Assembly (NCBI GenBank): GCA_016188045.1
Contig: JACPIM010000004.1
Location: 8,493-72,492, forward strand
Direction of reading: 5' to 3'
Length of the DNA stretch: 64,000 bases
Source of the DNA: Candidatus Woesearchaeota archaeon
Lineage (GTDB): Archaea > Nanobdellota > Nanobdellia > SCGC-AAA011-G17 > JACPIM01
Part shown: positions 14,577 through 62,523 of the stretch, piece by piece
Position numbering within the stretch: the stretch's first letter is position 1
Layout of the letters: each line of letters begins with the position of its first letter
Position numbers and translations under genes: made by a program
Notes under the pieces: generated by a model
Told to the model about the DNA's origin: nothing
Database searches by the model: none
Seen by the model: only the letters and a program-made list of their open reading frames with translations

Positions 14577-15254
14577 CTAAAACCCTTCTAATTTAATTAT
14601 CTTATATATCTCTTCGCTAGATATGCTGCACCCCCTTAATTTAACACCCCACAATATTCCATCTAATAATTCCCTTCTATTCCCATCAGCATATTTGTCT
14701 AATAAACCAAGCTCAAAAGCAACAACTAATAATTCACTACTTCTGATAACATTAACATCTCCTATGATTCTCTGAAATTGCTTCAAATTACTACTGTCAA
14801 TAGTAACTTTTCTACTAAGTTTTTTATTCAATAAATCTTTCAAGTTTTGAGGTTCTTCAATTAACATTCTCAAAGTTCTCTCATCAACAACCAAAGCTTC
14901 AGCATTTAGATGTTTAACAAGAACTAAACTTTCTATTTCAGCTTTTTGAAACAACTTCAAGTACTCGGTTCTTGTTTTATATATAGAATTACTTAACCTT
15001 AATAACCTATTAGTTTCAACAGTCAAATCTTCATCAGCCAACTTTAAAACGCCCTCATCTAGAAACTCTTTAATATACATAGCCTCAAATTTAAATCTTT
15101 TAGAAGTTAGTGGTTTATCTATCAGCTCATTTTTAACTTCATTAGTAATGTAAAAATCACCATTAAATTTCTTGTTTAAAGATCTTAATGTCCACATTAA
15201 ATTATCCATCACTAAGCTTATTACTGGTCCTGAATCAAAAACCAGAGATTTCAT
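14577..15254 (-). CDS. PIN-like protein, DUF3368-like (putative toxin component)
   Basis: N-terminal MKSLVFDSGPVISL resembles the DUF3368/PIN start (xxSNTGPLIAL); 4-nt overlap with the upstream gene. Confidence 0.45.
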   Translation of the reverse strand: MKSLVFDSGPVISLVMDNLMWTLRSLNKKFNGDFYITNEVKNELIDKPLTSKRFKFEAMYIKEFLDEGVLKLADEDLTVETNRLLRLSNSIYKTRTEYLKLFQKAEIESLVLVKHLNAEALVVDERTLRMLIEEPQNLKDLLNKKLSRKVTIDSSNLKQFQRIIGDVNVIRSSELLVVAFELGLLDKYADGNRRELLDGILWGVKLRGCSISSEEIYKIIKLEGF

Positions 15255-15910
15255 ATGAATATACTCCTAACAAATTTAATCCTCTCTTTAATATTCTTGG
15301 TAATGCTAAATTCAACATCAGCAATTCCAGTTTTACCTAAGTAATCCATAATTTCAAACTCGCTTAATCCTAAAATTTCAGCAACTCTCCCGACAGAAAT
15401 ACCATGCTCATGCAACCTAGAAGCTTTATGAATCTTGGCTCCTTGAAAAACAGCGATTATATAATCCCTTAATTTGGGCTCTAAATTGTATACTGCATTA
15501 AACATATTATGAACTACAGCTTCATAATTCTCTATATCATTATTTTCTAGTGCTTTTATTGCTTTATCAAAAAATTCAAGAATATTCTTATAAAACATAC
15601 CCCAGCTTTTATATTCCCTATAACTTACTCTCTCAAAAATTTTGCTTAAGCTATATATTATAATTGCAATAGTTGTACTATAATCATCCTGGTAGATACT
15701 AGCATCATGTAATGTATGATTACTTAATTCTCTTAAGTTTACAATATCCTCTTTCTTAATAGCCTCTAAACTCTTCCTTAAAACTTCAAGAATGTCTTTC
15801 TTTACCTCTTCTTCCATTTTTACCACTATTAAAATTAAGTCTGAATTCTGGATAAAAGATATAAAATTATTATAACTACGATTATTATTTTCCAGTTTTT
15901 TGATATCCAA
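15251..15910 (-). CDS. UPF0175-like HTH protein (putative antitoxin component, extended N-terminus)
   Basis: C-terminal GISVGRVAEILGLSEFEIMDYLGKTGI resembles the UPF0175 motif (ISLGRAAELAG.S..EF...L...GI). Confidence 0.45.
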   Translation of the reverse strand: MDIKKLENNNRSYNNFISFIQNSDLILIVVKMEEEVKKDILEVLRKSLEAIKKEDIVNLRELSNHTLHDASIYQDDYSTTIAIIIYSLSKIFERVSYREYKSWGMFYKNILEFFDKAIKALENNDIENYEAVVHNMFNAVYNLEPKLRDYIIAVFQGAKIHKASRLHEHGISVGRVAEILGLSEFEIMDYLGKTGIADVEFSITKNIKERIKFVRSIFI

Positions 15911-15930
15911 TTTACTAATTTATTCTTCAT

Positions 15931-16116
15931 TTATTTCACCCCTCGCCATGATATAAATAATCCAATAGCCAAAACAAAAAGTAGTTCAAAAATTATAATA
16001 TAAAATATATTTATATTAGACGACTTTAAATTATAATAAAAACCAACCATCAGACCAATTATAGTAACAAAGGCTATTGTTGATGTTGCTAAAGCACTTA
16101 TTTTTTCTGCTTTCAT
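15931..16116 (-). CDS. small membrane protein (two TM)
   Basis: Hydrophobic 61-aa ORF heading the operon. Confidence 0.3.
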   Translation of the reverse strand: MKAEKISALATSTIAFVTIIGLMVGFYYNLKSSNINIFYIIIFELLFVLAIGLFISWRGVK

Positions 16117-16226
16117 ATGTTTACATTAAAGAAACACTTATATAAAAAACCATCGACTTAAATTTTTTTATTTCTTAAATCCTTTAGAGCCAAAATTAAT
16201 AAACAACAAAATAATACTAGATTATA

Positions 16227-17831
16227 ATGAAAAGAGGCATTTTCATAATTTTTATTATATTAATTTTAAATCCCATAGTCCTGGCTGTGAATTTAAACAA
16301 TCCAGATGAACTAACTGAAAAAGATCTAATTGAATCTTGCAGAGTTCCCAGTTCAGGTCCAGAACTAGTTTTACAAAAGTCAATTCAAGGAGATATTTTA
16401 ATTTGGCTTTATGAACCAAATAAAGAAGAATTTGGTGATCTAGTAAGAGTAACTGATTTTGGAAAAATAAATGAAAACAGATATAGTTTTAAATTAGGAA
16501 ATAATCAAGAATATACTTTTGAAGCAATAATTCCAGATTACTGCATAAGACCAAAAGAGACTACAGCCAAAAGAGAAAACACCCAGACAAAAGAAGTATG
16601 TGGTAGCCCAGAAACACCAAGATCGATATTTATGGAAGGAAGAGGATATGCCTGCTTATATGACATCCCATCCACAGAAATACAACCAGAACAAGCTATA
16701 TTTTCTACCGGGATATTACCACAACCTTGTCCGCAAGAATACTGTGTAACTATCTCAGAATCAACATCACAACCTGTAATAACAAACACGCCAGAACCAA
16801 CAAGCCAACCAGAATCAACACCGCAAATGGATTCACGAGCACTAGCAAACGATATTAATAAAGCATTACCAAAAATAGCGTATTTTATAAGAAACTTTTT
16901 TAATTCTATACTGGGGGTGAAAGGATGTACAAGAGAACCGACACAAACACCACCACTTAATCCACCTATAAGCACAACTACTACAACAGAAGAGAAATGC
17001 AACGAAGAATTAGGGGATTTTGATGGTAGAGTGGAAAGAATAATTAAAACAAATATACATAAAGATATATCATTTTTTCCAGATTACAATAACAATTTTC
17101 AAACAAAAATGATAATAGAACTCAACCTACCAAAAACAAAAAATTCTAAAGACCCGCTCTGTGGACTGCCAAGAGGAACAACAACCATGAACTTTAGAGC
17201 AGAAGGACCGTCATTTGAATTCGCAGGCGGTTATAATAATGCTGCTGGAGCAGCAAGAAACGCAGTATTAAATTTCCTAAACAAACATTTCAAGAAATTC
17301 TATGAGAATATAGTCAAAAAAGGCATAGTTGGTAATGGTGGCATATTAATAGACCAAGATAAAAAAGACACATACTATTTTAAGGGTTTTGACAGAGAAA
17401 AGACCGCGTATGCTTTTTTTGAGAAAAATAAACCAGAAGGATATTTTTATTTTGATATAAACATAAAGTTTACAATAAAAGACAATTCTAAAGTAGAAGT
17501 AGATGTAAACGAAAGAGTAACTGAAGATAAAGCCCAAAATAAGATTTTATTACAGAATAATGCGAATTTTGAAATAACAGTTCAAGAATTTAAGGATTAT
17601 TTAAAAGATATAATAGATATGATTAACAGTTTAGACAAATTTGAAGAAAAATACCAAATCGTGTTAGAAGAGTCAGTTCCTGATGTAGAAGATTACGTTA
17701 ACGGTGGTTCATCAGACCCAATAAAGATGAAAACGGTCAAAAACACGAAAGTAACTGTAACCATAATAGAAACATTATATAGAAAAGAGCTAGATGAATA
17801 TGAAGAAAAAACAAAATGTTGTAAAGAGTAG
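16227..17831 (+). CDS. secreted Cys-containing protein with Thr/Pro-rich linker
   Basis: N-terminal signal peptide (IFIIFIILILNPIVLA), low-complexity TSQPVITNTPEPTSQPESTPQ linker, C-terminal CCKE. Confidence 0.55.
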   Translation: MKRGIFIIFIILILNPIVLAVNLNNPDELTEKDLIESCRVPSSGPELVLQKSIQGDILIWLYEPNKEEFGDLVRVTDFGKINENRYSFKLGNNQEYTFEAIIPDYCIRPKETTAKRENTQTKEVCGSPETPRSIFMEGRGYACLYDIPSTEIQPEQAIFSTGILPQPCPQEYCVTISESTSQPVITNTPEPTSQPESTPQMDSRALANDINKALPKIAYFIRNFFNSILGVKGCTREPTQTPPLNPPISTTTTTEEKCNEELGDFDGRVERIIKTNIHKDISFFPDYNNNFQTKMIIELNLPKTKNSKDPLCGLPRGTTTMNFRAEGPSFEFAGGYNNAAGAARNAVLNFLNKHFKKFYENIVKKGIVGNGGILIDQDKKDTYYFKGFDREKTAYAFFEKNKPEGYFYFDINIKFTIKDNSKVEVDVNERVTEDKAQNKILLQNNANFEITVQEFKDYLKDIIDMINSLDKFEEKYQIVLEESVPDVEDYVNGGSSDPIKMKTVKNTKVTVTIIETLYRKELDEYEEKTKCCKE

Positions 17832-17832
17832 T

Positions 17833-18048: not shown

Positions 18049-18157
18049 AACAAATTAAAAGTTATTATTATTTATAAACTTTACTACCTATAAGTTACAA
18101 TAAATTACAAGATAATAGCAATTTTTCAACCCGCAACTTATTTGCTAATTAGTGAAT

Positions 18158-28900: not shown

Positions 28901-28934
28901 TAAAACCACCTATTTTATAAAAAATACCATTCAC
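25914..28934 (-). CDS. FlaI/TadA-family secretion ATPase (T2SS-E) interrupted by an intein
   Basis: Walker A VGGTGTGKTS, Asp box IVSIEDTRELNL, RPDYVVVGEIRGAEAY, then the intein, then GHPSMGTMHAE (His box). 562 aa remain after intein removal. Confidence 0.85.
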   Translation of the reverse strand: MNGIFYKIGGFMLFRKKEAKTNSFANTKALTEKTIPEQKAQTEFKINLKQQIFELPTVKDKTKLNIRYPLIAPFAYAHIFWDEKRHELIYQVEEPILNSDEQRVLAILEKGIEELINISFIAIKSSEVIIKYLEENVKVLLNEYRIKVNKNTLLKLMYYIYRDFVGLNEIEPIMRDYFIEDIECNGVNSSVYIVHRKYRNIRTNVLYNDVSKLTSLVEKLAQKCGKYISYASPLLDGALPDGSRANATYTQDITSKGPTFTIRKFTVDPWSPVKLMQFRTVSPEVLAYLWLLIEYESNVLIVGGTGTGKTSFLNSIAFFVPPQARIVSIEDTRELNLLHENWLPSVAREGVGITSLVGTKQGEVTLFDLLKESFRQRPDYVVVGEIRGAEAYVLFQGMSSIRGDEKIMVLNDEHPKRISIKDMKKDIKYKVITYDELGNVKIMPVKFMIRHSGQKVLYEIITKKGRKITISKNHSLFNYDNGIIPIEAEKIKKGDRVLIPSKIPCGYCDFDEIDIMEYLSDIRVFAPDHVKEASHKLGYYKASKICGVCSITDYYSNFKRSKPSSLRAEKFVRLMKEAGLKYNKDDLIFKYDNRSKGFMGNLKLTPELLRLCGYYVSEGSLDDGENNSKIEFYNLNKEILDDMRHCIRKVTGSDAKERITYGFGKSIELSVNHRVLFEFLKRHFGKKENKHIPDFVFGLSKEKISALLSGLYTGDGSLTKDVGYYTISKELANDVAQLLLVYGIVARIGKRKRKGRKKIDYEVLFFSKWEKDVFLENVKIIGKRIIMKKIGKPKSSNYVNDLYLDIVLKINKKILKKPEPVYDLCVPGTQNFIGGFGGVLLHNSGHPSMGTMHAEDLHTMIRRLESPPINLSPTLVNSLDVVCIMANIKQEGKETRKVKKIIEIVKIGDKAGEETINEPFIWDPKSDKFYFKSHGKSYLKMDSRAFDKITTHYGISREKLMDEFRKRTLLLMRMYKAGITGFKEVHNVITAYYKTPDMILKKFGIS
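26406..27737 (-). mobile_element. intein (444 aa) with LAGLIDADG homing-endonuclease domain, between QGMS and SGHP
   Basis: Starts S-IRGDEKIMV, ends VYDLCVP...VLLHN followed by S. LAGLIDADG-like blocks LCGYYVSEGSL and LLSGLYTGDGSL. Confidence 0.75.
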
Positions 28935-30042: not shown

Positions 30043-30618
30043 TTAAACAGTTGGTTCTGCAGTTACTTGACAATTTGGAACATTTACTAAATTGTAATCC
30101 TGGACATTTTGTGTACATAACACCGGATCTTTGTCATCAGTTCCAGCTATTTTAGCAATTGCATCTATTTTGATGGGATTATTAATTGCTAAGGTATTAA
30201 TTAATGCAGGAGTGCTAGTGCTAATAAAAGTCTTAACACCAAACGATCCTAATGGACTAGTAGAGAGATCTAGTTTATCTGCTTTAACATCTCCCTCGTC
30301 GCCAGGACTTGCTCTTAAAGTAAGCTCAATAATATCTAAATTACCATTATTTTCAACAGTTACGCTTTTAATATGTCCTTGATTGGCCCCATCACAAAGC
30401 ACTCTTGATATGCTAAATTTCAATTCTGTAACACATTTCAAAGTAACATCTGTAGTCTGAGTAGTTCTTTTAGTCATACTATCAACAAAACTGCCACCCC
30501 AAGTTATTATCACAGCAGCTAAAGCCACAGTAAAACCAATAAGCAATACAGTGGCAATTAAAGGAGTTATACCCTTTTCGTCAAAGTTTTTCTTTGAAAA
30601 AGGTTGTTTTGATATCAT
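30043..30618 (-). CDS. type IV pilin (class III signal peptide), unusually long leader
   Basis: MISKQPFSKKNFDEKG then ITPLIATVLLIGFTVALAAVII (archaeal prepilin N-domain). Confidence 0.7.
   Translation of the reverse strand: MISKQPFSKKNFDEKGITPLIATVLLIGFTVALAAVIITWGGSFVDSMTKRTTQTTDVTLKCVTELKFSISRVLCDGANQGHIKSVTVENNGNLDIIELTLRASPGDEGDVKADKLDLSTSPLGSFGVKTFISTSTPALINTLAINNPIKIDAIAKIAGTDDKDPVLCTQNVQDYNLVNVPNCQVTAEPTV
30578..30618 (+). repeat. 41-nt direct repeat, copy A (encodes the leader of the first pilin)
   Basis: tcaaaacaacctttttcaaagaaaaactttgacgaaaag on the gene strand; near-identical to 33158..33198. Confidence 0.85.
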
Positions 30619-32938: not shown

Positions 32939-33024
32939 ACTAATGAAAAGCCAGGGGTGAGACTTGAACTCACTATCTCCGCCTTTTTGTTTTAAATACC
33001 AAGGCGGTACATTGACCAGTTATG
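32939..33024 (-). tRNA. tRNA-Thr (anticodon GGU) with 12-nt canonical intron
   Basis: Hand fold: acceptor GCCGGGG, D-arm GCAT/ATGT, anticodon stem CCGCC/GGCGG with loop TTGGTA-[TTTAAAACAAAA]-A, T-arm GTGAG-TTCAAGT-CTCAC. Caveat: the 1:72 pair reads G:G. Confidence 0.5.
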
Positions 33025-33073
33025 CTACCCCGGCACAAAATCTGAAGAAATAATGCGATTAATAAAGATTATG

Positions 33074-33217
33074 AATGCGGGGAACAGGATTTGAACCTGC
33101 GCAGGCACTAAGCCACAGGATTTCTCAGCAAGACTTAAGTCCTGCCCGTGAAGTCCAACTTTTTCGTCAAAGTTTTTCTCTGAAAAAGGTTGTTTGACCA
33201 GACTCCGGCATCCCCGC
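33074..33217 (-). tRNA. tRNA-Leu (anticodon UAA), class II, with two introns (about 44 nt in D-arm, 12 nt at 37/38)
   Basis: Acceptor GCGGGGA/TCCCCGC plus A; T-arm GCAGG-TTCAAAT-CCTGT; variable arm TGGC-TTAGT-GCCTGC; anticodon stem CAGGA/TCCTG with loop CTTAAG-[TCTTGCTGAGAA]-A; D-stem CCG/CGG split by about 44 nt. Confidence 0.65.
33158..33198 (+). repeat. 41-nt direct repeat, copy B (inside the tRNA-Leu D-loop/intron)
   Basis: Matches copy A with two mismatches and one indel. Confidence 0.85.
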
Positions 33218-39150: not shown

Positions 39151-39696
39151 ATGACAAAAGCACTAATCATTGTAGCTCACCCAGATGATGAAACAATCTG
39201 GATGGGTGGTTTTATTTTAAGAAATAAAAATTATGACTGGACTATCTTATCATTGTGCAGGAAACACGATAAAGATAGGTCTCCTAAATTTAAAAAAGTC
39301 TGCGACTTCTATAATTCAAAATCCTTTATGGATAATTTAAACGATACAAACAATAAACCAGTTAACATTGAAAGAATAATAATAAAAATTAAAAAACATA
39401 TTGAAAATAATTATGATTTAGTTTTCACTCACAACTCAAACGGCGAGTACGGTCATATAAGACACAAAGAAGTTCATCAAGCCGTTATGAAAATGATCAA
39501 TCGAAAGTTACTTAAAGCTGGTAAATTATTATTTTTCTCATACTTCAACGCTAAATTTAATAAAAAAATAAAATTAACTAAAGAAGAACTAGAAACTAAG
39601 AAGAAAATTATAACAAAAATGTATGGTTTTCAAAAAAATAGTTTTGAAGAAGAAAACTGCAGACAAGTTGAAACTTTCATGGAAGTGAAATTTTGA
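39151..39696 (+). CDS. PIG-L/LmbE-family N-acetylglucosaminyl deacetylase
   Basis: ALIIVAHPDDETIWMGG signature. Confidence 0.75.
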   Translation: MTKALIIVAHPDDETIWMGGFILRNKNYDWTILSLCRKHDKDRSPKFKKVCDFYNSKSFMDNLNDTNNKPVNIERIIIKIKKHIENNYDLVFTHNSNGEYGHIRHKEVHQAVMKMINRKLLKAGKLLFFSYFNAKFNKKIKLTKEELETKKKIITKMYGFQKNSFEEENCRQVETFMEVKF

Positions 39697-40838
39697 AGGC
39701 AATAATACAATATACACATCCAGTTCAACCAGATGGTTTAAGCATTCAGGGACATTTTCTTTATAAAGGCATGTCAGAGAATGGAGATCAAGTAGCTCCA
39801 TGCGACAAGCAAGGCGGCCATCAAAAAGAATGGATATATAATTATTTAAAACCGCAAGTTTCTATTGGTATAGGGGTCTGGAATGAGACTCCGAATTTAA
39901 TCCACGAACCACAAAAACATAACATTACTCCTGTTCCATGGTTCGTAGCAGACGGATGGATTGCAAATTATCATGATACATTAAATAAATTACCGTTAAT
40001 ACTAACAACAAGCGAATGGGTAAAAGAGGTATATGTTCGTGATGGCGTTTCTGGAAAAAATATTCACCCAACATATATTGGCATTGATACAGATGAAACA
40101 AAACCAATTCCCAGAACAGATCCTAAAGTAAAAAAAATAAGGGAAATGTTCGGAATAAAGGAAGATGAAGTTCTTCTTATGACTGTTGGTGGAGATGTTA
40201 CTTCTAAGGGAGCCCAAGAAATGATTCGCGCTCTTCATAAGATAAATGGTGAATTCAAAAATTGGAAATATTTATGCAAGGCCTGGCCAAGTGAATCAGC
40301 CAAAGATCACCATAGAGAAGAAATGCAGTTAATGAAAGAACTTAATTTAGATGAAAAAAAGATTATGTTTATTGACGGTTGCTTCTCTAATGAATTCATG
40401 ACCTATTTATTGAATGCGTGCGATATTTATGCTGCTCCATCAAGACTGGAAGGTTTTGGCATGATCCAAGTCGAAGCTCAAGCATGCGGCAAACCCGTTA
40501 TTTCAATAAATAAAATGGGACCAAAAGAAACAATAGTACACAAAAAAACAGGGTTTTTAGCAGATGTTGCTGAAACAATAGATTTAGAGCAAGAGTGGGC
40601 AACCAGATCAATGGGATTTAAAGAAAGATTTTTAATGAAGTTTGATGAACCAAAAACACTGGGTTACAGAGCAGATGTAGATCAGCTAGCAGAATACACT
40701 TTAAAATTAATGCAAGATAAAGACTTAAGAGAAAAAATGGGAAAAGAAGCAAGAAAACACACAGTTAAAAATTTCCATTACACCCACACTTCAAAAATAG
40801 TCTCAGACTTAATAAAGAAAAAGTTAAATTTAGAATAA
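39693..40838 (+). CDS. glycosyltransferase family 1 (GT4-type)
   Basis: C-terminal PSRLEGFGMIQVEAQACGKPVIS (E-x7-E). Confidence 0.8.
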   Translation: MKAIIQYTHPVQPDGLSIQGHFLYKGMSENGDQVAPCDKQGGHQKEWIYNYLKPQVSIGIGVWNETPNLIHEPQKHNITPVPWFVADGWIANYHDTLNKLPLILTTSEWVKEVYVRDGVSGKNIHPTYIGIDTDETKPIPRTDPKVKKIREMFGIKEDEVLLMTVGGDVTSKGAQEMIRALHKINGEFKNWKYLCKAWPSESAKDHHREEMQLMKELNLDEKKIMFIDGCFSNEFMTYLLNACDIYAAPSRLEGFGMIQVEAQACGKPVISINKMGPKETIVHKKTGFLADVAETIDLEQEWATRSMGFKERFLMKFDEPKTLGYRADVDQLAEYTLKLMQDKDLREKMGKEARKHTVKNFHYTHTSKIVSDLIKKKLNLE

Positions 40839-40886
40839 AAAAGAAAAAACTGGAAAGCTAAGTTTGTTTTGGATATTTAAAAAAAA
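40837..40886 (+). repeat. direct repeat copy 3 (degenerate, non-coding remnant of the archease 3' end motif)
   Basis: aaaaaagaaaaaactggaaagctaagtttgttttggatatttaaaaaaaa; one mismatch and a 1-nt shorter A-run versus 21326..21375. Starts at the GT gene stop codon. Confidence 0.8.
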
Positions 40887-40913
40887 GAAAAAATAAGAAA
40901 AACCAAAATATTT

Positions 40914-41429
40914 TTAGTTTTCTCTTTCTGCCGGCATAGTTGCTTGGTTTTCATAAGCTTTAAGACATTTTTCTAACTGTGCATTGCTTACTCGCCCAAA
41001 CTCTTCTCTAATGAATTGATTATCTCTATATCTAACATAGTCATCTGTTACAACTTTAGTGACTACATTTCCTCTACCATAATCTTTCTCAAATATGGGA
41101 TCAAAAGATAATTTAGCACCTTCTTTTAAAACTATATTGCCAAATCCAAGGTTATCCAAAATTTTTCTTTCTTCATCTGTAGATAGTATTCTGTCCTTCC
41201 CAGCAGCAGCACTATATACTCTATTTATTAATTGTGTAGTGTAATCCATTTTAGAGTGACATTCAGCAAAATGTCTGTCAAGACCCCTATAACCAGCAAC
41301 ACCAGCAATTCCTAAAGCTGCTCCTAAGGCAACCCTCATAAGCCATCTTTTTGGGTTTATTTCAAAATTTATTTTCATTTTCATTTCTCCTCTTTTTTTG
41401 TTTAAGGTTGGGAAAGATAACCAACTCAT
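40914..41429 (-). CDS. hypothetical secreted or membrane-anchored protein
   Basis: N-terminal hydrophobic segment RVALGAALGIAGVAG. Confidence 0.45.
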   Translation of the reverse strand: MSWLSFPTLNKKRGEMKMKINFEINPKRWLMRVALGAALGIAGVAGYRGLDRHFAECHSKMDYTTQLINRVYSAAAGKDRILSTDEERKILDNLGFGNIVLKEGAKLSFDPIFEKDYGRGNVVTKVVTDDYVRYRDNQFIREEFGRVSNAQLEKCLKAYENQATMPAEREN

Positions 41430-41539
41430 TTTAATTATATTTACTATATAGTAGTAATAGTAGTATATATTAAACTTTCTTCATATTTTTCCATCAAAAC
41501 ACAAGATTTATATATTAATATTGTATATAAAAGTGATAT

Positions 41540-42499
41540 ATGATAAATTTAGACTTAAAAGACAAAAAAATACTATATCAATTAGACTTAAATTCAAGAC
41601 AATCTAATTCAGAAATAGCAAAGAAAGTTCAGCTAAGTAAAGATATAGTAAACTATAGAATAAAAAAATTAGAAAGCGAAGGTTTCATAAGTGGCTATTA
41701 CACCATAATTAATTTTTACCAATTAGGTTATATTAGCATAAGAGTTTACATAAAACTGGTAAATACGCCAGTAGATAAAGAAAATGAAATTCTAGATTTT
41801 CTTATTAATAATAAAAACACCTTTTTCGTAGTTAAAATAGATGGTAATTTTGATATTGGATTTGGAACATATGTCAAAGATATCTATCAATTTGAGGAAT
41901 TTTATCAGGATTTCAAGAAAAATTTCAAAAAATACATAGGAAAAGAGCAAATATCAATTTTCACAAAAGTATATCACTTCCACAGGCCATATATAATAGA
42001 TAAGGAATTTGATGATACCAAACCAGAATACCTAGGTGGAAAACTAACAAGCAAATATGATAAATTAGATATAGAAATCCTAAAGCTTTTAGCAAACAAT
42101 TCAAGAATTCCGATAACAGAAATCTCATCAAAATTAAAAATTCCCGTAATGACCGCTTCTTTTAGAATAAAGCAATTAGAAAAAAAAGAAATAATCCAGG
42201 GATACAGGTTTGTTTTTGATTTCAAGAAATTTAATTATGAATATTATAAAGTTGATATTGTATTAGATAACACATTAAGACTTAAAGAATTAATAAATTA
42301 CATTCATTCTAATCCAAATACGACTTATATAGACCAAACAATTGCTGGCTCTGATTTTGAATTTGAGTTAGAAGTAAAAAGCAAAGAGCATTTATTAACC
42401 ATTATAGATGAATTAAGAATAAAATTCCCAGAAATCAGGGAGTTAAGTTATTTTACAATCAGAAAATATAAAAAACTGCTTTATTTTCCTGAAATTTAG
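41540..42499 (+). CDS. tandem-domain Lrp/AsnC-family transcriptional regulator
   Basis: Two HTH_AsnC-like segments (ILYQLDLNSRQSNSEIAKKVQLSKDIVNYRIKKLESEGFI and ILKLLANNSRIPITEISSKLKIPVMTASFRIKQLEKKEII), each followed by a RAM-like region. Confidence 0.6.
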   Translation: MINLDLKDKKILYQLDLNSRQSNSEIAKKVQLSKDIVNYRIKKLESEGFISGYYTIINFYQLGYISIRVYIKLVNTPVDKENEILDFLINNKNTFFVVKIDGNFDIGFGTYVKDIYQFEEFYQDFKKNFKKYIGKEQISIFTKVYHFHRPYIIDKEFDDTKPEYLGGKLTSKYDKLDIEILKLLANNSRIPITEISSKLKIPVMTASFRIKQLEKKEIIQGYRFVFDFKKFNYEYYKVDIVLDNTLRLKELINYIHSNPNTTYIDQTIAGSDFEFELEVKSKEHLLTIIDELRIKFPEIRELSYFTIRKYKKLLYFPEI

Positions 42500-42502
42500 A
42501 TT

Positions 42503-42552
42503 AAACATTTCTTTCTTTTTACGTTTTCATAGCCAATATATATACATTATCC
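42503..42552 (+). repeat. direct repeat copy A: remnant 3' end of a GDE-like gene (reverse strand reads ...YIYIGYENVKRKKCLI-stop)
   Basis: About 50 nt similar to 43356..43405. The first 34 nt are near-identical, then divergent, but it still encodes the same C-terminal peptide and a TAA stop. Confidence 0.85.
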
Positions 42553-42621
42553 AACCAACGCACTATCGCCACTATTTACACCATCACCAACCACAAGATT
42601 TATATATAAGATAATCTTACT

Positions 42622-42638
42622 AATAAGATATACTTATT
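42622..42638 (+). promoter_or_regulatory. inverted repeat AATAAG-ATATA-CTTATT upstream of vapB (candidate operator)
   Basis: Perfect 6-bp arms 16 nt upstream of the ATG; GGAGG Shine-Dalgarno-like motif follows. Confidence 0.35.
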
Positions 42639-42653
42639 AAGGAGGTAATAAAG

Positions 42654-42911
42654 ATGGAAAAATTAGAAATAACAAGCATGAGTTCAAGAGGACAAGTAGT
42701 TATACCATTAGATATAAGAGAACAACTCAAATTAAAAGAGGGAGAAAAATTTGTTGTGGTAGGAGAAGAAGATACAATTATATTAAAAAAAGTAACTATG
42801 CCTTCCTTCAAAAATTTTGATAAATTACTTCAAAAAACTCAGCAGTTCGCCAAAGATAGGGATATAACCAAAGCCGATGTTGAAAGTGCGATCAAAAGAG
42901 CTAGAAGATGA
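42654..42911 (+). CDS. vapB: AbrB/SpoVT-domain antitoxin (VapB-like)
   Basis: SSRGQVVIPLDIREQLKLKEGEKFVV swapped-hairpin motif. Confidence 0.75.
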   Translation: MEKLEITSMSSRGQVVIPLDIREQLKLKEGEKFVVVGEEDTIILKKVTMPSFKNFDKLLQKTQQFAKDRDITKADVESAIKRARR

Positions 42912-43309
42912 AGATAGTCCTTGATACAAATATATTTATCTCAGGCATTTTCTGGAGAGGTAGCTCTAATAAAGTTATAACCAATTGGAAAGAAGGAAGA
43001 TTTACACTAGTCATTTCCTTACAAATAATTTCAGAAATAATAAAAGTTCTAAAGGATTTTAAAATCAAGCTTTCAGATGACATGATTAAAGAGTGGATAG
43101 ATTTAATTGTGAGAAATTCAGTAATTATAGAACCAAGAGAAAGCATCAAGATTATTAAAGAAGACCCAAAGGATAATATTTTCATTGAAACTGCTGTTGC
43201 TGGAAACGTAGATTATGTAATATCGCAAGACAATCATTTATTAAAACTAAAAGAGTTTAGAGGAATTAAAATAATAACTCCAGAAGAATTCAATAAAATA
43301 TGCAATTAA
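42908..43309 (+). CDS. vapC: PIN-domain ribonuclease toxin (VapC-like)
   Basis: MKIVLDTNIFISG N-terminus with acidic residues spaced as in PIN domains; 4-nt overlap with vapB. Confidence 0.7.
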   Translation: MKIVLDTNIFISGIFWRGSSNKVITNWKEGRFTLVISLQIISEIIKVLKDFKIKLSDDMIKEWIDLIVRNSVIIEPRESIKIIKEDPKDNIFIETAVAGNVDYVISQDNHLLKLKEFRGIKIITPEEFNKICN

Positions 43310-43348
43310 AATCAAATCCATCAAGCATTCATGAAGACTTAACACGCA

Positions 43349-44449
43349 TCAAATCAAACATTTCTTTCTTTTTACGCTTTCATAAGCTAAGATATAAACA
43401 CCAGCATCCCAAGCATGTTCTTCTCCGCCACCAGGTTTTCCAGTTCTGCCATCCATCCATTCACTAAAATTACCTTTATTATTTCCTTCAGCCAGTCTAA
43501 TTAATTCTTCTTTAGCTTCTTTAAATCTCTTCATTTTAACTAAAGCACAAATATAAAATCCACCAATAAAAGGCCAAACACCACCATTTAAATATTTATA
43601 AGGAAAACTACCAGAGGTTTCATAATAGTCTTGCCAATATTTATTTCTTTTAGTAATAGGAGGATCAATTGCTCTAACAGGAAAAGGTTTGTTTATTTTT
43701 TTATTTTCAATGTAATTCAATATTTTATTAGCATTTTCTTTATTACATAACTCAAAAATAACAGCCAATAAATTCCCTAGAGAATCAAACCAATCACCTT
43801 CCTCTTTTATTTTATCATGGTTCTTCCATCTGAAAGCAGAATAATATTTTCCATTGAACAATTTCCTCTCTTTATGCTCATTAACGGTTTTTTTAACTTT
43901 ATCAGCTAATTTCTTTTCATTCATTAAATTCAAAACTTTATAATACAACGCCTGTGTATTTATGGTATGCCCATATTTATGTGGAAAAGCATCCTGCCAA
44001 TCAGTTGTCGGCTGTTGCTCGGGCAATAAATCTTCACCAGCATCCTGGTATTTAACCCATAATAACGCTTTTCTAATATTCTCCTTATATTTCTTCAATA
44101 AACTTTTATCTTTATATCTTAAATAATAAACATACTCTCCAATTATAAACCATAAACTAGAATCTATTGTAGCAAAACTAACTCCATTTTTAGTTTTACT
44201 ATCTGAAAATATATCAACATTATTTGGAATCTGTCCTAATTCACTCTGATATTTAGCTAAAGTTTCCAAAGATTTTTTAAAAGTTTTTTTAAAAGTATCA
44301 TTCTTAACTAAACTAGCACCTAAAAAAGAAATCATGCTGTCTCTCGCCCAAACAGAAGTATATCCTCCAACAGAAGCATATAATCCATTCTTAGTGCAAC
44401 ATCTTCTGATTACTTTAACTGCATTTCTATAAACTTCATCAATAAGCAT
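43349..44449 (-). CDS. six-hairpin glycosidase, glycogen-debranching-enzyme C-terminal (GDE_C)-like
   Basis: LYASVGGYTSVWARDSMISFLGASL near the N-terminus and WQDAFP...YYETSGSFPYKYLNGGVWPFIGGFY are consistent with the GDE_C/GH15-like (alpha/alpha)6 family. Confidence 0.6.
   Translation of the reverse strand: MLIDEVYRNAVKVIRRCCTKNGLYASVGGYTSVWARDSMISFLGASLVKNDTFKKTFKKSLETLAKYQSELGQIPNNVDIFSDSKTKNGVSFATIDSSLWFIIGEYVYYLRYKDKSLLKKYKENIRKALLWVKYQDAGEDLLPEQQPTTDWQDAFPHKYGHTINTQALYYKVLNLMNEKKLADKVKKTVNEHKERKLFNGKYYSAFRWKNHDKIKEEGDWFDSLGNLLAVIFELCNKENANKILNYIENKKINKPFPVRAIDPPITKRNKYWQDYYETSGSFPYKYLNGGVWPFIGGFYICALVKMKRFKEAKEELIRLAEGNNKGNFSEWMDGRTGKPGGGEEHAWDAGVYILAYESVKRKKCLI
43356..43405 (+). repeat. 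direct repeat copy B: actual 3' end of the GDE-like gene (...ILAYESVKRKKCLI-stop)
   Basis: See copy A. Confidence 0.85.
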
Positions 44450-44503: not shown

Positions 44504-44839
44504 TTACTTCAATATAGAATATAAAACAACATAAATTTCATTTAACTTATTTTTATTTATTTTACCTATCACCTTGATTATTAACCTTTTATCTATTTTC
44601 AAAATATTTTCTACTTTAATGACACAGGGTTTATCTAAATTGCCTTTTTCCAAATCCAAACTTGATAATTGTATGCTATATTTATCCCTATGTAAATTAG
44701 AAGTTACACCTAAAACAATAATGTCTTCAGAACTATTATTAAAATCATTATTGCTTATAACAACAACAGGTCTAACTTTTTTACCAGATTGATCAGAAAA
44801 AGGAAATGGTATTAATAATAAATCGCCTTGCTCTATCAT
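44504..44839 (-). CDS. mazF: PemK/MazF-family mRNA interferase toxin
   Basis: GDLLLIPFPFSDQSGKKVRPVVVIS matches the MazF/PemK N-terminal motif. Confidence 0.8.
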   Translation of the reverse strand: MIEQGDLLLIPFPFSDQSGKKVRPVVVISNNDFNNSSEDIIVLGVTSNLHRDKYSIQLSSLDLEKGNLDKPCVIKVENILKIDKRLIIKVIGKINKNKLNEIYVVLYSILK

Positions 44840-45066
44840 TCTAGGTATTTACTCCAAACTTTGTCATCTTTTTTATTATTCCACAATTTTTCAAGAGATT
44901 TTTCTGCCAATGCCAACCATCCATCTTTCTCCTTTCTTCTAGTTTCTATTTTTTCATTAATTAATTGTCTTATAAATTCTGATTTTGAAGGGTAGTGCCT
45001 TTCCTTTACAAAACTATCTAATTCTTTTAACTGTTCTTTTGGAAGTTTAATTGTTATTGTTTCCAT
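44836..45066 (-). CDS. ribbon-helix-helix (CopG-like) antitoxin
   Basis: TITIKLPKEQLKELDSFV...SKSEFIRQLI RHH pattern; 4-nt overlap with mazF. Confidence 0.65.
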   Translation of the reverse strand: METITIKLPKEQLKELDSFVKERHYPSKSEFIRQLINEKIETRRKEKDGWLALAEKSLEKLWNNKKDDKVWSKYLE

Positions 45067-57675: not shown

Positions 57676-58395
57676 TCAGTATAGCCATAAACAAACACCA
57701 TTTTTACAACCACCCTTGCAATTATAAGTAATACTTCCGCTCTCTTCTGGTGTTTGGCAATAATATTCCATTAAGTTCTTATCATCAATACACCTATCGG
57801 GTTTACAAAAATCACCAACACAGGTCTTTCCTAAGGTGTAATAATTCTTCCCATCAGGAATGTTCTTAGTCACATCGCTATCGGTACATTTTGGGGTAGG
57901 TACTTCTTGTACACAAGGCACTGGACTATTAAATAAAATACCTTTATTATCAACACAAACATAATTTGTCCCTTCTCCTGCTAGATCTTTTGCTTGAAAA
58001 GCTTTTGCTTCGCAAACACTATCACCATCACAGGAATTGGCTTTTATTTCAGTAGTCGGAGGAACCGAACATACAAATAACACTTTTTCATCTTTGCCAT
58101 CAATAACAGTAGTTACATAACCTCCACAAGAACTTTTCCATGTTATTTTTTCCCCATATGAACCTGAAACCGTAACATCACAAAAAGATTGTCCTTTACA
58201 AGACCATTTTTCTGAATCTGAATAACAATTTTCTACATTATTTGAACCACTAAATGAACACCTAACAGTTTCTTTAACCAGTTTCTTATATATTTGAGCA
58301 CCACTTATTCCATTGCCTCCAAGCAATAAAATCCCAACAACACCAATAACAAGAACAACTAAAACAGTATTCCAATCTGCTTTATTTTTAGCCAT
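57676..58395 (-). CDS. Cys-rich secreted or membrane-anchored protein
   Basis: N-terminal TM/signal (WNTVLVVLVIGVVGILLLGG); more than 20 Cys. Confidence 0.5.
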   Translation of the reverse strand: MAKNKADWNTVLVVLVIGVVGILLLGGNGISGAQIYKKLVKETVRCSFSGSNNVENCYSDSEKWSCKGQSFCDVTVSGSYGEKITWKSSCGGYVTTVIDGKDEKVLFVCSVPPTTEIKANSCDGDSVCEAKAFQAKDLAGEGTNYVCVDNKGILFNSPVPCVQEVPTPKCTDSDVTKNIPDGKNYYTLGKTCVGDFCKPDRCIDDKNLMEYYCQTPEESGSITYNCKGGCKNGVCLWLY

Positions 58396-58554
58396 TAAAT
58401 CACCTTCTTTTTTTAATCATTAAAATATTATTTAATTCATAATTAATCATAGGATATATATATATTGTACAACGATAAAGTAGTGATTATCAAAAAAATA
58501 CTAAAAAAACAAACAGAAAATAATATAATAGAAGTAAACAGATAATAACAATAT

Positions 58555-58855: not shown

Positions 58856-58868
58856 AAAAGAAAGCTGG

Positions 58869-59339: not shown

Positions 59340-59467
59340 TCAACAAATGTTTATATATCATTTAGTTTCCTAATATAGTAAGAGGTGTAAAAAATGATTT
59401 CTTATGAAGAAAGCAAAAAAAACAAAACTTTATTTGAGTCTCTAGATTTAGAAGAAATAGAGCATAA

Positions 59468-60385
59468 TTAAACTCTTTCTTTCAAACTTGCATAAATTAA
59501 AGGTAAAACAACAGTAGTATCGGCATAAACATCAACAAATTCTCCATCTTTATCCATTTTACCCCAACTAATTCCCTCTTTCAAACTAGCTCCGCTACTT
59601 CCGCCATATTCAGCCCTGTCAGTTGTTATTTGAACACCATAACTCGCACTTTTAGGAGAAAATTGCATGGCCTGTTGTATATAATTTTTAGGAACCCCCC
59701 CACCAAGATAAACAACCCCTGCTTTTTTACAAGTCCAAGCTATGTCTACTATCTCTTTCAAATCTTCAAATAATTTAATCTCCATTTTCTTTCCTTTCAT
59801 TAACCTACCCCAAATCATCAAACCAATTCCAGAATCTTCCAAAGCAGGACAAAATATAGGTATCTTATTCAAGTAAGCTTGTCTCAAGATAGAATTATCA
59901 TCTTTTATATTGCTTCCAACTAACCATAGTAACTCTCTAACAGTTTTAGCTTTTGAAAATTCATCAAAGTTTTCTTCAAAAAAATCTTCCATTCCTTCAT
60001 AAACCTTATTATCCATTAAGCTATTATACATCCTGTCTAATCCTTTTTTGTTTAATTCTTTATCATCCATGTCCTCATGTCCTTGTAAATGATTATAGCC
60101 TAAGGCTTCAGCTAAATCATGAGTTAAACTTGCCCCAGTACAAACAAAAACACTAATAAGTTTATTTCTTAAAATATCACTCAAGATATTTCTCATCCCG
60201 CCAGGAATTAAAGCACCAGCTTGTCCTAAAAAGATTTTGCAATTTTTATCTTTAATCATTTTTTCTAAAATATCCACTGCTTTACCTACTCTAGAACCCT
60301 GCATAACTCCTGTTTTTCCCATTTCTCTAACTAATTCATCAACTTTCATTCCTTTTTTTATTTTAATTTGCTCTACTTTTTTCAT
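59468..60385 (-). CDS. dys: deoxyhypusine synthase
   Basis: Family-wide similarity by eye (GASLTHD, GGGVPKNY, NAD-binding pattern); about 305 aa, typical archaeal size. Confidence 0.8.
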   Translation of the reverse strand: MKKVEQIKIKKGMKVDELVREMGKTGVMQGSRVGKAVDILEKMIKDKNCKIFLGQAGALIPGGMRNILSDILRNKLISVFVCTGASLTHDLAEALGYNHLQGHEDMDDKELNKKGLDRMYNSLMDNKVYEGMEDFFEENFDEFSKAKTVRELLWLVGSNIKDDNSILRQAYLNKIPIFCPALEDSGIGLMIWGRLMKGKKMEIKLFEDLKEIVDIAWTCKKAGVVYLGGGVPKNYIQQAMQFSPKSASYGVQITTDRAEYGGSSGASLKEGISWGKMDKDGEFVDVYADTTVVLPLIYASLKERV

Positions 60386-60408
60386 AATCTATATACTCTA
60401 GAATATAG

Positions 60409-60422
60409 TTTATAAATCTTTA
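60409..60422 (+). repeat. 14-bp perfect direct repeat tttataaatcttta (copy 1)
   Basis: Identical to 60896..60909; the pair brackets hicAB. Confidence 0.6.
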
Positions 60423-60432
60423 GATTATCAAC

Positions 60433-60660
60433 TTAAATGTTTCTAAGAAATTCCTCTCTTGTCATTCTAAGATCTTTCTTTATTATTTTATTTAAAAGAC
60501 CAGGACCTATTTCTTCACCACCATAATATGGAATAGTAGTTTTTCTTCCGTCTGGATGTTTGTAAATCATATGACTTCCAGTTATATGGCTATAAACAAA
60601 ACCAAGTTTACTAATAATCTTGCCCAATTCTTTTCCTGTTAGCTTAGGCAACTTTGCCAA
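60433..60660 (-). CDS. hicA: HicA-family toxin
   Basis: LGFVYSHITGSHMIYKHPDGRKTTIPY matches the HicA/YcfA-like core. Confidence 0.75.
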   Translation of the reverse strand: MAKLPKLTGKELGKIISKLGFVYSHITGSHMIYKHPDGRKTTIPYYGGEEIGPGLLNKIIKKDLRMTREEFLRNI

Positions 60661-60664
60661 AGAA

Positions 60665-60874
60665 TTACACCTCTATCTGTTGTATGCCTACAAATTCTTC
60701 ATTTATTTCTGGTTCTTCTTCTGTTTCTAAATAAGCCTTAATAGCTTCTTTTGTTCTTTCTACTAATTGATCTATAGTTTTGCCTTGTGTGTGGCATCCC
60801 GGAAGCTCTACTACTTCAGAAACATACCATCCTTCTTCATCTTTTTCTATAATAATATTATATCTTCTTTTCAT
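60665..60874 (-). CDS. hicB: HicB-family antitoxin (UPF0150)
   Basis: EKDEEGWYVSEVVELPGCHTQGKTIDQLVERTKEAI matches HicB. Confidence 0.75.
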   Translation of the reverse strand: MKRRYNIIIEKDEEGWYVSEVVELPGCHTQGKTIDQLVERTKEAIKAYLETEEEPEINEEFVGIQQIEV

Positions 60875-60895
60875 ACTGCCTATAGCCGCCCCTTA

Positions 60896-60909
60896 TTTAT
60901 AAATCTTTA
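60896..60909 (+). repeat. 14-bp perfect direct repeat tttataaatcttta (copy 2, ends on the argS stop codon)
   Basis: Includes tta, the reverse complement of the argS TAA stop, at 60907-60909. Confidence 0.6.
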
Positions 60910-62523
60910 CATCTCTTCCATAACTTCAATTCCTAATAACCATAAAGAAGATTTCATTACTATCAAAAAGGCCTTTACAATAGCTAATCTTTGTCCTTCT
61001 TCAGCACTACCTATCACAGGACATAAATGATAGAATTCATTAAAAATTTGAGCTAACTGGAAAGAGTAATTAGCAATCAAAGAAGGATTTAATGAACTAC
61101 TCGCTTGTTCAACCACAACCTTAAATTCATCTAATTTTTTAATTAATTCAATCTCTTTTTCTTTCAATCCAACAATTTTAAAATTACTTTTTTTCCTAGC
61201 TTTTTTTAAAATACTAGCTGCTCTAACATAGCTATACTGCAAATAAGGCCCCGAATTGCCTTCAAAGCTTAAAGCTTGCTCCAAATCAAATATTATGTTC
61301 TTATTATTTTCATTCCTTAACATAGCATATTTTATAGCACCAATTCCTATTTTTTTCTTATCTCCTTTAGTTTTTCTTTTCTCAATTTCTTTTTCAGCTT
61401 TCTTAACAGCCTCCCCTATAAATTCATCCAATAAAACAACTTCTCCACGCCTAGTAGACATTTTTCCAACATCTTTCAATAAAACAAAAGAATAATGAAC
61501 AACTTCTGGGTACGATCTTTTTAATGAAATCAAAGCCTGTTTCAATTGTTCAAAATAAAGTTTCTGATCTTCACCTAAAACAATAACGTTTTTACCTTTT
61601 TTACATTTATATAGTGTATAAGCCAAATCCCTTAAAGGATATAATCCAGTTCCGTCATTTCTAGTTAAAACTAAAACAGGAGATTTCATTTTAACTTCTA
61701 ATCTGGTTCCAGATTGATCTAAAACCATTCTACCTTCTTCATCCTTAAACAATTTACCTGTTTTTTCAAGTTGTTTTAATACTTCTCTACTAGAATTAAT
61801 ATAATCAGATTCATAATCAAAATAATCGAAATTAATGCCTATAGATGAAAATATTTTCTTTTGTCCTTTCACAGCAATATCAACTATTTTTCTAAATAAC
61901 GCAACGGTTTTTTTATCTTTTTTCTCAAATTTATTTAAAAGTTCAAAAACTTTTTTTTCTAATTCTGGGTTTTCTTCAATTTTCTTGCTTACCTCAACAT
62001 ATATTCTTAATAGATCATTAAAATCATTTTTAGAATTAAAATTCAAAGCCAAGATAGCTATCTGCTTGCTTACATCATTTACATAATAATGGGTTTCTAT
62101 TTTATATCCATTAAATTCCAAAATTCTCTTTATAGAATCTCCAATAATAGAATTTCTTGCCCGACCAACATGAGGAGAAGCATTTGGATTTACACTGGTA
62201 TGCTCTAAGATTATTTTTCCTTTCTTTTTTGTTAAACCTTTTGTATTTAAAATCCCCTTTATTACCCATAAGGCAAATACTTCTTTATCAATAAAAAAGT
62301 TCAAATATGGCCCTTTATTCTCAACTCTAAAATTTTTATTTATTATTTTCTCGCTTAATTCTTTAGCTATTTTATTAGGGTCCTTTTTAAATTCTTTAGC
62401 CAATTCAAAACAGGGAAAGGAATAGTCTCCTAATCTACTATCGGGAGGAATCTCTAATTTAACCCCTTTCTTAAGAATTTTCTTTAATTCTTTTTTAATC
62501 TCTATTTCAAAATCCATAAACAA
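60907..62523 (-). CDS. argS: arginine--tRNA ligase
   Basis: Class I HIGH-region variant HTSVNPNASPHVGRARNSIIGDSIKRIL; C-terminal DALR-type anticodon-binding helices. Confidence 0.85.
   Translation of the reverse strand: MFMDFEIEIKKELKKILKKGVKLEIPPDSRLGDYSFPCFELAKEFKKDPNKIAKELSEKIINKNFRVENKGPYLNFFIDKEVFALWVIKGILNTKGLTKKKGKIILEHTSVNPNASPHVGRARNSIIGDSIKRILEFNGYKIETHYYVNDVSKQIAILALNFNSKNDFNDLLRIYVEVSKKIEENPELEKKVFELLNKFEKKDKKTVALFRKIVDIAVKGQKKIFSSIGINFDYFDYESDYINSSREVLKQLEKTGKLFKDEEGRMVLDQSGTRLEVKMKSPVLVLTRNDGTGLYPLRDLAYTLYKCKKGKNVIVLGEDQKLYFEQLKQALISLKRSYPEVVHYSFVLLKDVGKMSTRRGEVVLLDEFIGEAVKKAEKEIEKRKTKGDKKKIGIGAIKYAMLRNENNKNIIFDLEQALSFEGNSGPYLQYSYVRAASILKKARKKSNFKIVGLKEKEIELIKKLDEFKVVVEQASSSLNPSLIANYSFQLAQIFNEFYHLCPVIGSAEEGQRLAIVKAFLIVMKSSLWLLGIEVMEEM

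Follow-up and report, generated by a model that had tools for sequence, protein, structure and literature searches.

Integrase-less units residing at attachment (att) sites are known from the cis-mobilisable elements (CIMEs) of Streptococcus integrative and conjugative elements (ICEs) and from genomic islets at the 3' ends of tRNA or protein genes, while the IMEX elements (integrative mobile elements exploiting Xer) and pdif modules are small, recombinase-less and often toxin-antitoxin (TA)-bearing units that are moved by the host Xer. For bacterial restriction-modification genes, insertion with long target duplication has been described, in which repeats of 46-420 bp are formed and no mobility gene is present; the repeats often span a stop or start codon, and the target gene therefore stays intact (Nobusato et al. 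2000, Gene 259:99; Furuta, Abe and Kobayashi 2010, PMC2853133; further PMC3874152). The mechanism is unresolved, and no archaeal case survived the screen (PMC2853133). C-terminal displacement, together with homology-facilitated illegitimate recombination, is described for the orphan toxin-immunity modules of Rhs and contact-dependent inhibition (CDI) systems and for the effector-immunity arrays of the Vibrio cholerae type VI secretion system (T6SS; Kirchberger et al. 2017, PMC5361080). How TA and other small defence modules move without a mobility gene of their own is poorly understood, and is even less clear in the DPANN archaea (Diapherotrites, Parvarchaeota, Aenigmarchaeota, Nanoarchaeota and Nanohaloarchaeota), which have tiny genomes and few recognisable mobile elements. 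Here we describe TA cassettes bounded by duplicated ends of host genes in a 64,000-nucleotide stretch (hereafter the window) of a 106-kb contig from a metagenome-assembled genome of a Candidatus Woesearchaeota archaeon (locus prefix HYV88; G+C content 29.6%).

An earlier note on this DNA had listed five TA-like pairs and proposed that gene 3' ends act as sites for integrase-less TA cassettes. TA pairs and host genes were called by Pfam, and the TA pairs were judged against the curated gathering scores. Four of the five pairs (DUF433/DUF5615, VapBC, RHH-MazF and HicAB) score above these thresholds and are predicted type II TA systems; the fifth, beside tRNA-Trp, has sub-threshold matches only. 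The two MgtE halves and the arginyl-tRNA synthetase (ArgRS) were also confirmed by Pfam among the host genes. Direct repeats were scored between the flanks of all 243 blocks of 1-3 consecutive genes, giving a 99th percentile of 15.7. The DUF433/DUF5615 block, located behind the archease gene, ranked first of 243 with a score of 83, and the VapBC block, located behind a GDE-like gene, ranked second with 28. HicAB was borderline (score 14, tied rank 4-5), while MazEF (9) and the tRNA-Trp pair (10) scored at background. The proposal of gene 3' ends as insertion sites is supported for archease and GDE, and not for argS/HicAB, RHH-MazF or the tRNA-Trp pair: the phenomenon is real, its documentation being good for one hot spot and moderate for a second site, and it is not five-fold.

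The archease locus of the window comprises:
20946..21371, plus strand: archease gene (Pfam Archease, E=6.7e-39), downstream of rtcB as in relatives
21278..21375, plus strand: archease-end copy A, made up of the 94 nt that form the functional end of the gene and of 4 nt more
21376..22021, minus strand: DUF433/DUF5615 cassette, with its own promoter region at 21982-22021
21392-21751, minus strand: DUF5615 toxin (Pfam; PIN-like)
21748-21981, minus strand: DUF433 antitoxin (Pfam)
22022..22119, plus strand: archease-end copy B, a non-coding remnant, displaced and directly adjoining the DNA that follows the array

Copies A and B are 98 nt long, are identical at 93 of 98 positions (95%) and bracket the DUF433/DUF5615 cassette. 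The same repeat-cassette-repeat layout with identical junctions recurs in the independent metagenome assemblies L004 and L016 (L numbers denote loci of relatives), and L003 too has the cassette at these junctions. The archease repeat is therefore not an assembly artefact, an explanation that the earlier note had left open.

Related loci, in which archease is 87-93% identical at the amino acid level, were taken from metagenomes as well as other assemblies. The window archease protein had no match in an exact look-up, and viral contigs scanned with the archease protein and with the repeat core likewise gave none. Comparison of these loci reveals the presence/absence polymorphism that had been anticipated for such cassettes. 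L005 represents an empty site, where rtcB and an archease gene with one end copy are followed by a 270-nt non-homologous gap and then by the homologue of window position 22578 onward. In L004, the DUF433/DUF5615 cassette is present with both repeats and with junctions identical to those of the window, followed by a second cassette (a 76-aa gene and a DUF2283 gene) and a third, partial end copy of 35 nt. The gene that comes after this last copy encodes a CxxC PD-DExK nuclease (PADLOC PDC-S69 match, E=1.7e-45) and is adjacent rather than repeat-bounded. In L003, L016 and L017, a Fic cassette matching SoFic and PDC-S04 sits between archease and the DUF433/DUF5615 cassette, the two being separated by a 48-nt partial end copy. 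L006 and L019 contain the same Fic cassette, followed by a 46-nt end copy and then by different DNA. The haplotypes at this site are accordingly empty; DUF433/5615; DUF433/5615 followed by 76 aa plus DUF2283; Fic followed by DUF433/5615; and Fic followed by other DNA. All archease-end copies have a common right end (the stop codon plus about 5 nt) and a variable left end, with lengths of 98, 91-97, 48, 46 and 35 nt, and a conserved core of about 30 nt (TGGAAAGCNAANTTTGTTNTGGATATTT) is present in every copy, non-coding ones included. Seven of the 11 related contigs break off no more than about 1.5 kb beyond archease, as is typical where strains vary. In this Woesearchaeota population, the archease 3' end is a hot spot at the population level.

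Synonymous divergence (dS) was calculated by the Nei-Gojobori method, with Fisher tests on the synonymous differences. Between the window and L004, dS was 0.20 for DUF5615 and 0.15 for DUF433, as opposed to 0.52 for RtcB, 0.64 for archease and 0.85 for the next conserved downstream gene. Across the three comparisons window/L004, window/L016 and L004/L016, the cassette gave values of 0.15-0.25 and the flanking genes 0.49-0.85 (p = 6e-6, 1e-6 and 1e-4, respectively, for the contrast). Similarly, the 40-nt cassette promoter spacer is 100% identical between the window and L004, compared with 69% for the rtcB-archease spacer. Judged by synonymous sites, the DUF433/DUF5615 cassette is about three times younger than the host genomes, yet it sits at the same junctions; because it is that much younger than its flanking genes, it has moved horizontally.

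The sequences of the end copies are informative in themselves. The stop-proximal allele of copy A (GCTAAATTTGTT) is also found in L004, L005 and L016, and L021 and L001, which are more distant relatives, share part of the near-stop allele of copy B (GCGAGATTTATT). At its left edge, copy B has the letters TA in common with the equivalent L004 copy. Differences between copies A and B are clustered at both edges, the central 66 nt being identical. Certain variants are common to the copies within one genome and absent from orthologous copies, and recombination between copies is therefore indicated. The repeat polymorphisms fit an exchange inside the repeat.

At the GDE locus, and in the interval that separates it from the neighbouring GT4 glycosyltransferase gene, the following features were identified:
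40830/40837-40891, plus strand: orphan archease-end copy C, beginning at the stop codon of the GT4 glycosyltransferase gene (39693-40838)
42496..42546, minus strand: GDE-end remnant, stop codon 42496-98 included
42589..43310, plus strand: VapBC cassette unit, 722 nt from the promoter to the vapC stop
42654-42911, plus strand: VapB (MazE/AbrB; Pfam)
42908-43309, plus strand: VapC (PIN_3; Pfam)
43349..43400, minus strand: gene-proximal repeat copy, the functional GDE 3' end
43349-44449, minus strand: GDE-like glycosidase (GDE_C/GH100-like; Pfam)

The GDE repeat (43353-43400 versus 42500-42546) is about 45-50 nt long, 89% identical with one indel, and flanks VapBC. Homology of the remnant extends to the stop codon at 42496-98, which overlaps the stop of an AsnC-type regulator gene (41540-42499), the arrangement expected of a native convergent junction. 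In sequence, the remnant is similar to the native GDE end of L009, the closest relative (TATATATTGGC...TTAAT, TAA stop), whereas the functional end differs from the remnant/L009 type (CTTAGC...TTGAT, TGA stop). From the repeat allele patterns it seems that, at both the archease and GDE loci, the gene-proximal end came with the cassette and the native end was displaced. L009, with a GDE of 89% amino acid identity, has no VapBC downstream of GDE and a different downstream neighbour. The GDE end is single in L009, L010 and L011, yet none provides a clean empty site; L011 is without the whole 2.5-kb interval. The GDE-end duplication flanking VapBC is genuine.

In L011, the homologue of the GT4 gene and the GDE gene are directly convergent with overlapping stops, and window positions 40839-43348 are therefore inserted DNA. 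This interval contains copy C, a 171-aa gene (function not assigned), the AsnC-type regulator, the GDE remnant and VapBC. Copy C, missed by the earlier note, was found by self-comparison of the window and lies 19 kb from the archease locus; it is 49-56 nt long, 96% identical to copy A and 87.5% to copy B. The archease-locus cassettes of relatives contain no homologue of the 171-aa gene. Upstream of both the AsnC-type regulator gene (41497-41515) and vapB (42589-42607) lies a 19-nt near-repeat (ACAAGATTTATATAT core; flank score 17), which probably reflects promoter similarity. Separately, a 91-nt divergent intergenic stretch at 41386-41476 is 89% identical to L005 7490-7577; in the window it lies within the 171-aa gene/AsnC regulator pair and in L005 within an unrelated small-gene/TrmB regulator pair, with no homology between the flanking proteins.

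Clustering at 90% identity places VapB in a group of 215 members. Loci reached via one identical VapB show that the 722-nt VapBC unit occurs, 82-86% identical and with sharp ends, in at least 4 other genomic contexts, and an Rfam search of these loci returned nothing. In L038 and L039, a partly palindromic element of roughly 55-100 nt (GTTCTAGATGTATCGCATTCGCTCA...TAGAAC) follows vapC (L038 1-53 and 2196-2249; L039 about 985-1100). The two copies in L038 flank a 2.2-kb unit containing VapBC. The element is absent from the window and from Rfam.

Long target duplications have been recognised by an insert of less than 20 kb without a linked mobility gene, by a flanking repeat of more than 30 bp, and by a single copy of the repeat at the empty site of a relative. 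The inserts described here measure 0.65-0.85 kb and contain TA genes only. Repeats longer than 30 bp flank them at archease and GDE, and were not found around HicAB (14 nt), MazEF or the tRNA-Trp pair; a single copy at the empty site of a relative is seen at archease, in L005. As with the restriction-modification genes, an addiction-type module without a mobility gene is bounded by long repeats of variable length (35-98 nt here, as against 46-420 bp), the empty site of a relative has one copy of the repeated sequence, and the repeats often span a stop or start codon. In contrast to those cases, the cargo here consists of type II TA and Fic genes and the host is a DPANN archaeon. The archease end is furthermore reused, giving tandem arrays with partial copies, and the genome has an orphan copy of the target at another place.

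The likeness to the Rhs, CDI and T6SS arrays (PMC5361080) lies in modules anchored by homology to a conserved upstream gene region, in older material pushed downstream and in repeated 3' pieces. There, however, the displaced ends are variable toxin domains functionally tied to the cargo; in the present case an unrelated housekeeping gene (archease or the glycosidase) supplies the repeated piece, its invariant end, and the TA or defence genes carried are independent of it. With CIMEs and att-site accretion, the cassettes share integrase-less units, direct repeats of a gene 3' end and tandem arrays, but no integrase, inverted-arm att core or related autonomous element was found in the window or related loci. 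Integron cassettes, whose chromosomal arrays are TA-rich, are also small, of one or two genes, many of them TA, and stacked at one site, and in the single informative case the newest cassette is nearest the anchoring gene, as in an integron. The repeats differ in being host gene-end copies without attC-like structure (z about 0), there is no IntI or attI, and the cassettes have their own promoters. IMEX elements and pdif modules resemble the present cassettes as small modules without a recombinase gene and with repeated sites at their bounds; they differ in that no dif-like site is present in the archease or GDE repeats.

Several of these systems were considered in turn as explanations. An integron cassette array was rejected, as no attC-like fold was found (DNA folds of all repeat copies, z = -1.0 to +0.7 versus shuffles) and the window and related loci have no IntI, attI or Pc, the upstream genes being rtcB and archease. 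Archaeal dif sites are defined by 11-nt arms and a 6-nt spacer (PMC2958812). The best 11-nt arms in the repeats matched at 7-8 of 11 positions, a level reached by 36-81% of random windows, and movement by Xer at a dif-like site was accordingly rejected. An att core with inverted recombinase-binding arms and a fixed crossover segment was not found either, the arms being at chance level and the targets sharing no motif; a recognition motif common to the archease and GDE ends was discarded because 67 of 500 shuffles scored as well. Finally, DNA transposon or insertion sequence activity was rejected: self-comparison of the window showed no inverted repeats flanking the cassettes, no transposase was found among the window genes tested, and the duplications are long (35-98 nt) and variable. 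No integrase or transposase was found in the cassettes, in the related archease-site loci or among the about 60 open reading frames (ORFs) of the 64-kb window that were tested.

We propose instead that DUF433/DUF5615 and VapBC are small self-contained cassettes of 0.65-0.75 kb, with their own promoter, one or two genes and no recombinase gene, each inserted at the junction of two convergent genes. Each cassette would have brought a replacement copy of the host gene's last 50-98 nt, and the original gene end would have been shifted downstream as a non-coding remnant. The duplicated end would thereby serve as a portable homology arm, such that the host gene stays intact and excision could occur via repeat-repeat recombination. 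Successive insertions at the archease end would then build tandem arrays of addiction and defence cassettes with full or partial end copies between them. Insertion itself could take one of two forms. A circle carrying the gene end and cargo might integrate by a single Campbell-type crossover, circles arising by loop-out between repeats; alternatively, a linear donor might be anchored in the conserved gene and have its other end joined illegitimately (homology-facilitated illegitimate recombination). A right boundary at the stop codon is expected if homology stops where the conserved gene stops, and variable left boundaries fit arbitrary break points. Homology-anchored insertion is favoured because no dedicated recombinase is indicated, the right boundary lies at the gene end and the left boundaries vary. 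Mobile cassettes combined with homology-anchored insertion provide the best explanation overall, to which we assign a probability of roughly 55%. That DUF433/DUF5615 and VapBC are mobile cassettes inserted with long target duplication is highly probable; for the homology-anchored, recombinase-free mechanism, where the insertion step itself is what we infer, we consider the odds to be about even.

A number of observations weigh against this explanation. Neither a circular or excised form nor a crossover event was observed, and the homology of some units, at 35-50 nt, is short for efficient homologous recombination; we know of nothing reported on recombination in DPANN archaea. L005 might owe its empty site to secondary loss, and the relatives and the window alike are metagenome assemblies. 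Homologues of DUF5615 with 76% identity (L012-L014) have other surroundings, one being the space between L18e and a tRNA-like sequence beside RpoD, with no significant gene-end repeats, and the gene-end pattern is therefore not extended to them. No flanking repeats were found around the VapBC unit in its other contexts, and its constant sharp ends look more like a precise, enzyme-driven process or another mode of movement. A Fic insertion close to the window end, at which L028 and L025 differ by a 900-nt indel, also has no flanking repeat. This Fic gene (63296-64000) runs past the end of the window; it is present in L028 (897-1751), and L025 has 49 nt in its place (1747-1795).

A serious rival is that non-autonomous cassettes are mobilised in trans by a site-specific recombinase whose gene lies elsewhere, be it on the chromosome, a plasmid or a virus, in the manner of CIMEs and tandem accretion. 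The repeats would then be attL and attR, and the attP of the element would hold the gene-end copy. Direct repeats at a gene 3' end together with tandem arrays are the classic footprint of integrase-mediated accretion, and match what is seen at archease. The constant right boundary, the conserved core that persists in non-coding copies and the precise ends of the VapBC unit in all contexts would also be accounted for, and the recombinase search covered 64 kb of the genome. Conversely, no such enzyme was found in the cassettes, related loci or window, the repeats have no inverted-repeat core or dif-like site, archease and GDE are without a common motif, and 98 nt is long for an att site. The earlier note had offered both crossover of circles and a recombinase encoded elsewhere. 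These are the two main candidates, and the evidence leans towards the homology-based route; recombinase action in trans we rate as unlikely, at something like one chance in four.

Transposon-like insertion at widely staggered breaks, with both copies arising by host fill-in and perhaps provoked by the toxin nuclease, is improbable. Such breaks might be the origin of long and variable target duplications like those of restriction-modification genes, and the cargo genes here are nucleases (the PIN-like DUF5615 and VapC). The copies should however be identical and host-derived, whereas the gene-proximal copies carry clustered foreign-type alleles and the remnants are of native type; the same cassette-remnant junction is moreover shared by lineages whose cassettes are younger than their genomes, and the duplications vary from 35 to 98 nt. 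Marginally less credible is the suggestion that the cassettes are leftovers of decayed larger, integrase-bearing elements whose addictive TA genes survived. TA genes do persist after mobile-element loss, and att-like repeats are present. Nevertheless, several independent decays to neat units of one or two genes would be needed at one site, the boundaries of the DUF433/5615, Fic and VapBC units are identical across lineages and contexts, and no integrase fragments lie between the repeats. Least tenable is the absence of any mobility, with TA pairs as intergenic residents among chance matches, local tandem duplications or assembly chimeras: it holds for the three other pairs, but is refuted at the archease locus by the repeat score, the independent assemblies, the empty site and alternative cassettes of relatives and a cassette dS of about one third of host dS, and the GDE score of 28 is likewise above the 99th percentile.

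Homology-anchored insertion of mobile cassettes would, if correct, restrict the flow of defence cargo to relatives with the same target gene end, and so shape repertoires in episymbiont populations. Conserved gene ends at convergent junctions are suggested as safe landing pads. It is possible, although we put this forward tentatively, that DPANN archaea spread defence and addiction genes by a recombinase-free, integron-like system in which a spare 3' end of a housekeeping gene acts as the portable homology arm; a cassette might then integrate behind that gene in any relative, leave the gene intact, loop out again and build hot-spot arrays. Were this integron-like reading true, it would explain how long target duplication comes about and would add both Archaea and TA systems to the range of the phenomenon. 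The archease locus provides a natural series of empty, single and stacked cassettes with dated horizontal movement that can be mined in population metagenomes, and it links archaeal TA mobility to the mechanistically unresolved duplications of restriction-modification genes. The earlier note was not aware of any characterisation of this behaviour in archaea with small genomes. Full-text literature searches found no report of gene-end-duplicating TA cassettes in DPANN archaea, although the bacterial restriction-modification genes are a clear precedent (PMC2853133): long target duplication is known for these, and the literature searched contains no earlier report of it for archaeal TA cassettes.

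The remaining three pairs look resident and vertically inherited, with variation only by loss or swap of the toxin:
14577..15910, minus strand: two-gene unit by tRNA-Trp, syntenic in relatives, comprising 14577-15254 and 15251-15910 (225 and 219 aa; sub-threshold matches only)
44504..45066, minus strand: RHH-MazF, no flanking repeat
44504-44839, minus strand: MazF/PemK toxin (Pfam)
44836-45066, minus strand: RHH antitoxin (Pfam)
60409..60909, minus strand: HicB-HicA region, the pair at 60433-60874 with 14-nt TATA-like repeats
60433-60660, minus strand: HicA (Pfam)
60665-60874, minus strand: HicB (Pfam)

RHH-MazF had been included in the pattern on account of its position behind an MgtE-like gene. 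This assignment has to be withdrawn, given the background repeat score and co-divergence with MgtE (RHH dS = 0.25 versus 0.26-0.33 for MgtE). In L009, RHH is retained together with the final 23 nt of mazF, and the remainder of the toxin gene has been lost between TAAAT microhomologies.

Among the three gene-end repeats originally claimed, those of archease (98 nt) and GDE stand, while the 14-nt argS repeat does not. The sequence TTTATAAATCTTTA is exactly repeated at 60409-22 and 60896-909, its overlap with argS amounts to the stop codon only, and the start codons of DHS and hicB lie 22-37 nt downstream of one copy each. We therefore rejected it as a gene-end repeat: the placement is that of an archaeal TATA-box promoter, and the match is borderline by chance. 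HicB-HicA is syntenic in L025, with dS no different from that of DHS (p=0.28). In L028-L031, hicB is kept and two other small genes replace hicA, which is a toxin swap and not a cassette with gene-end duplication. The neighbouring ArgRS gene (60907-62523) is itself unusual, with a non-synonymous divergence (dN) of 0.37-0.49 to close relatives versus 0.03-0.05 for DHS; at the DNA level the alignment covers only parts of argS, suggestive of a mosaic or replaced N-terminal region.

For the tRNA-Trp pair, the sub-threshold matches are to UPF0175 (E=0.002) and, faintly and on a homologue, to DUF3368; both partners weakly match the PADLOC candidate system PDC-S70. Searches of NCBIfam, PDB sequences and PADLOC did not settle its identity, and this unit is not confirmed as a TA pair. 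It is found at the same place in L005 and L015 with 92-93% amino acid identity, and its dS of 0.76 is comparable to the 0.86 of RtcB. Cassettes and repeats fixed and syntenic across distant relatives had been named as grounds for abandoning the mobility proposal; HicAB, RHH-MazF and the tRNA-Trp pair are syntenic and co-diverge with the host, whereas the archease locus is variable.

Elsewhere in the window, the rtcB gene (19328-20880), which encodes a tRNA/RNA ligase, contains a frame-breaking 29-nt insert (about 19614-19642) after GGIGFD. In L005, L015 and L016 a different insert of 32 nt follows DAHWG (L005 about 8667-8698; L016 about 147-178), and L001 has neither. Purifying selection on the rtcB exons is strong (dN 0.017-0.05), and the insert of the window lies within a helix-loop-helix fold (z=-2.85). 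Both inserts are candidates for mRNA introns of the endonuclease-spliced type, located in the gene of the ligase itself. In L021, a free-standing LAGLIDADG ORF lies upstream of rtcB, and within the window the SMC protein (6490-11493, plus strand) and a PilB/T2SSE-type ATPase (25914-28934, minus strand) each have an intein bearing a LAGLIDADG homing endonuclease.

Two intron-containing tRNA genes, at 32949-33034 and 33076-33217 (both minus strand), were missed by ARAGORN and are supported by Rfam matches. In the second, the D-loop region holds an insert of 49 nt and the anticodon loop one of 15 nt. Part of the D-loop insert (33161-33195) is identical at 34 of 35 positions to 30575-30609, which corresponds to codons 4-15 (KQPFSKKNFDEK) of a pilin-like gene (30043-30618). 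The two copies are 2.6 kb apart, with four genes and another tRNA between them, and may represent another insertion with long duplication, or a scar. Lastly, a 53-nt stretch that includes TATATATATATTGTACAAC occurs at 58434-58486 and 63471-63523 with 87% identity, upstream of the minus-strand gene 57676-58395 and of a PEGA-domain gene (62583-63434), and is probably a shared promoter or operator.

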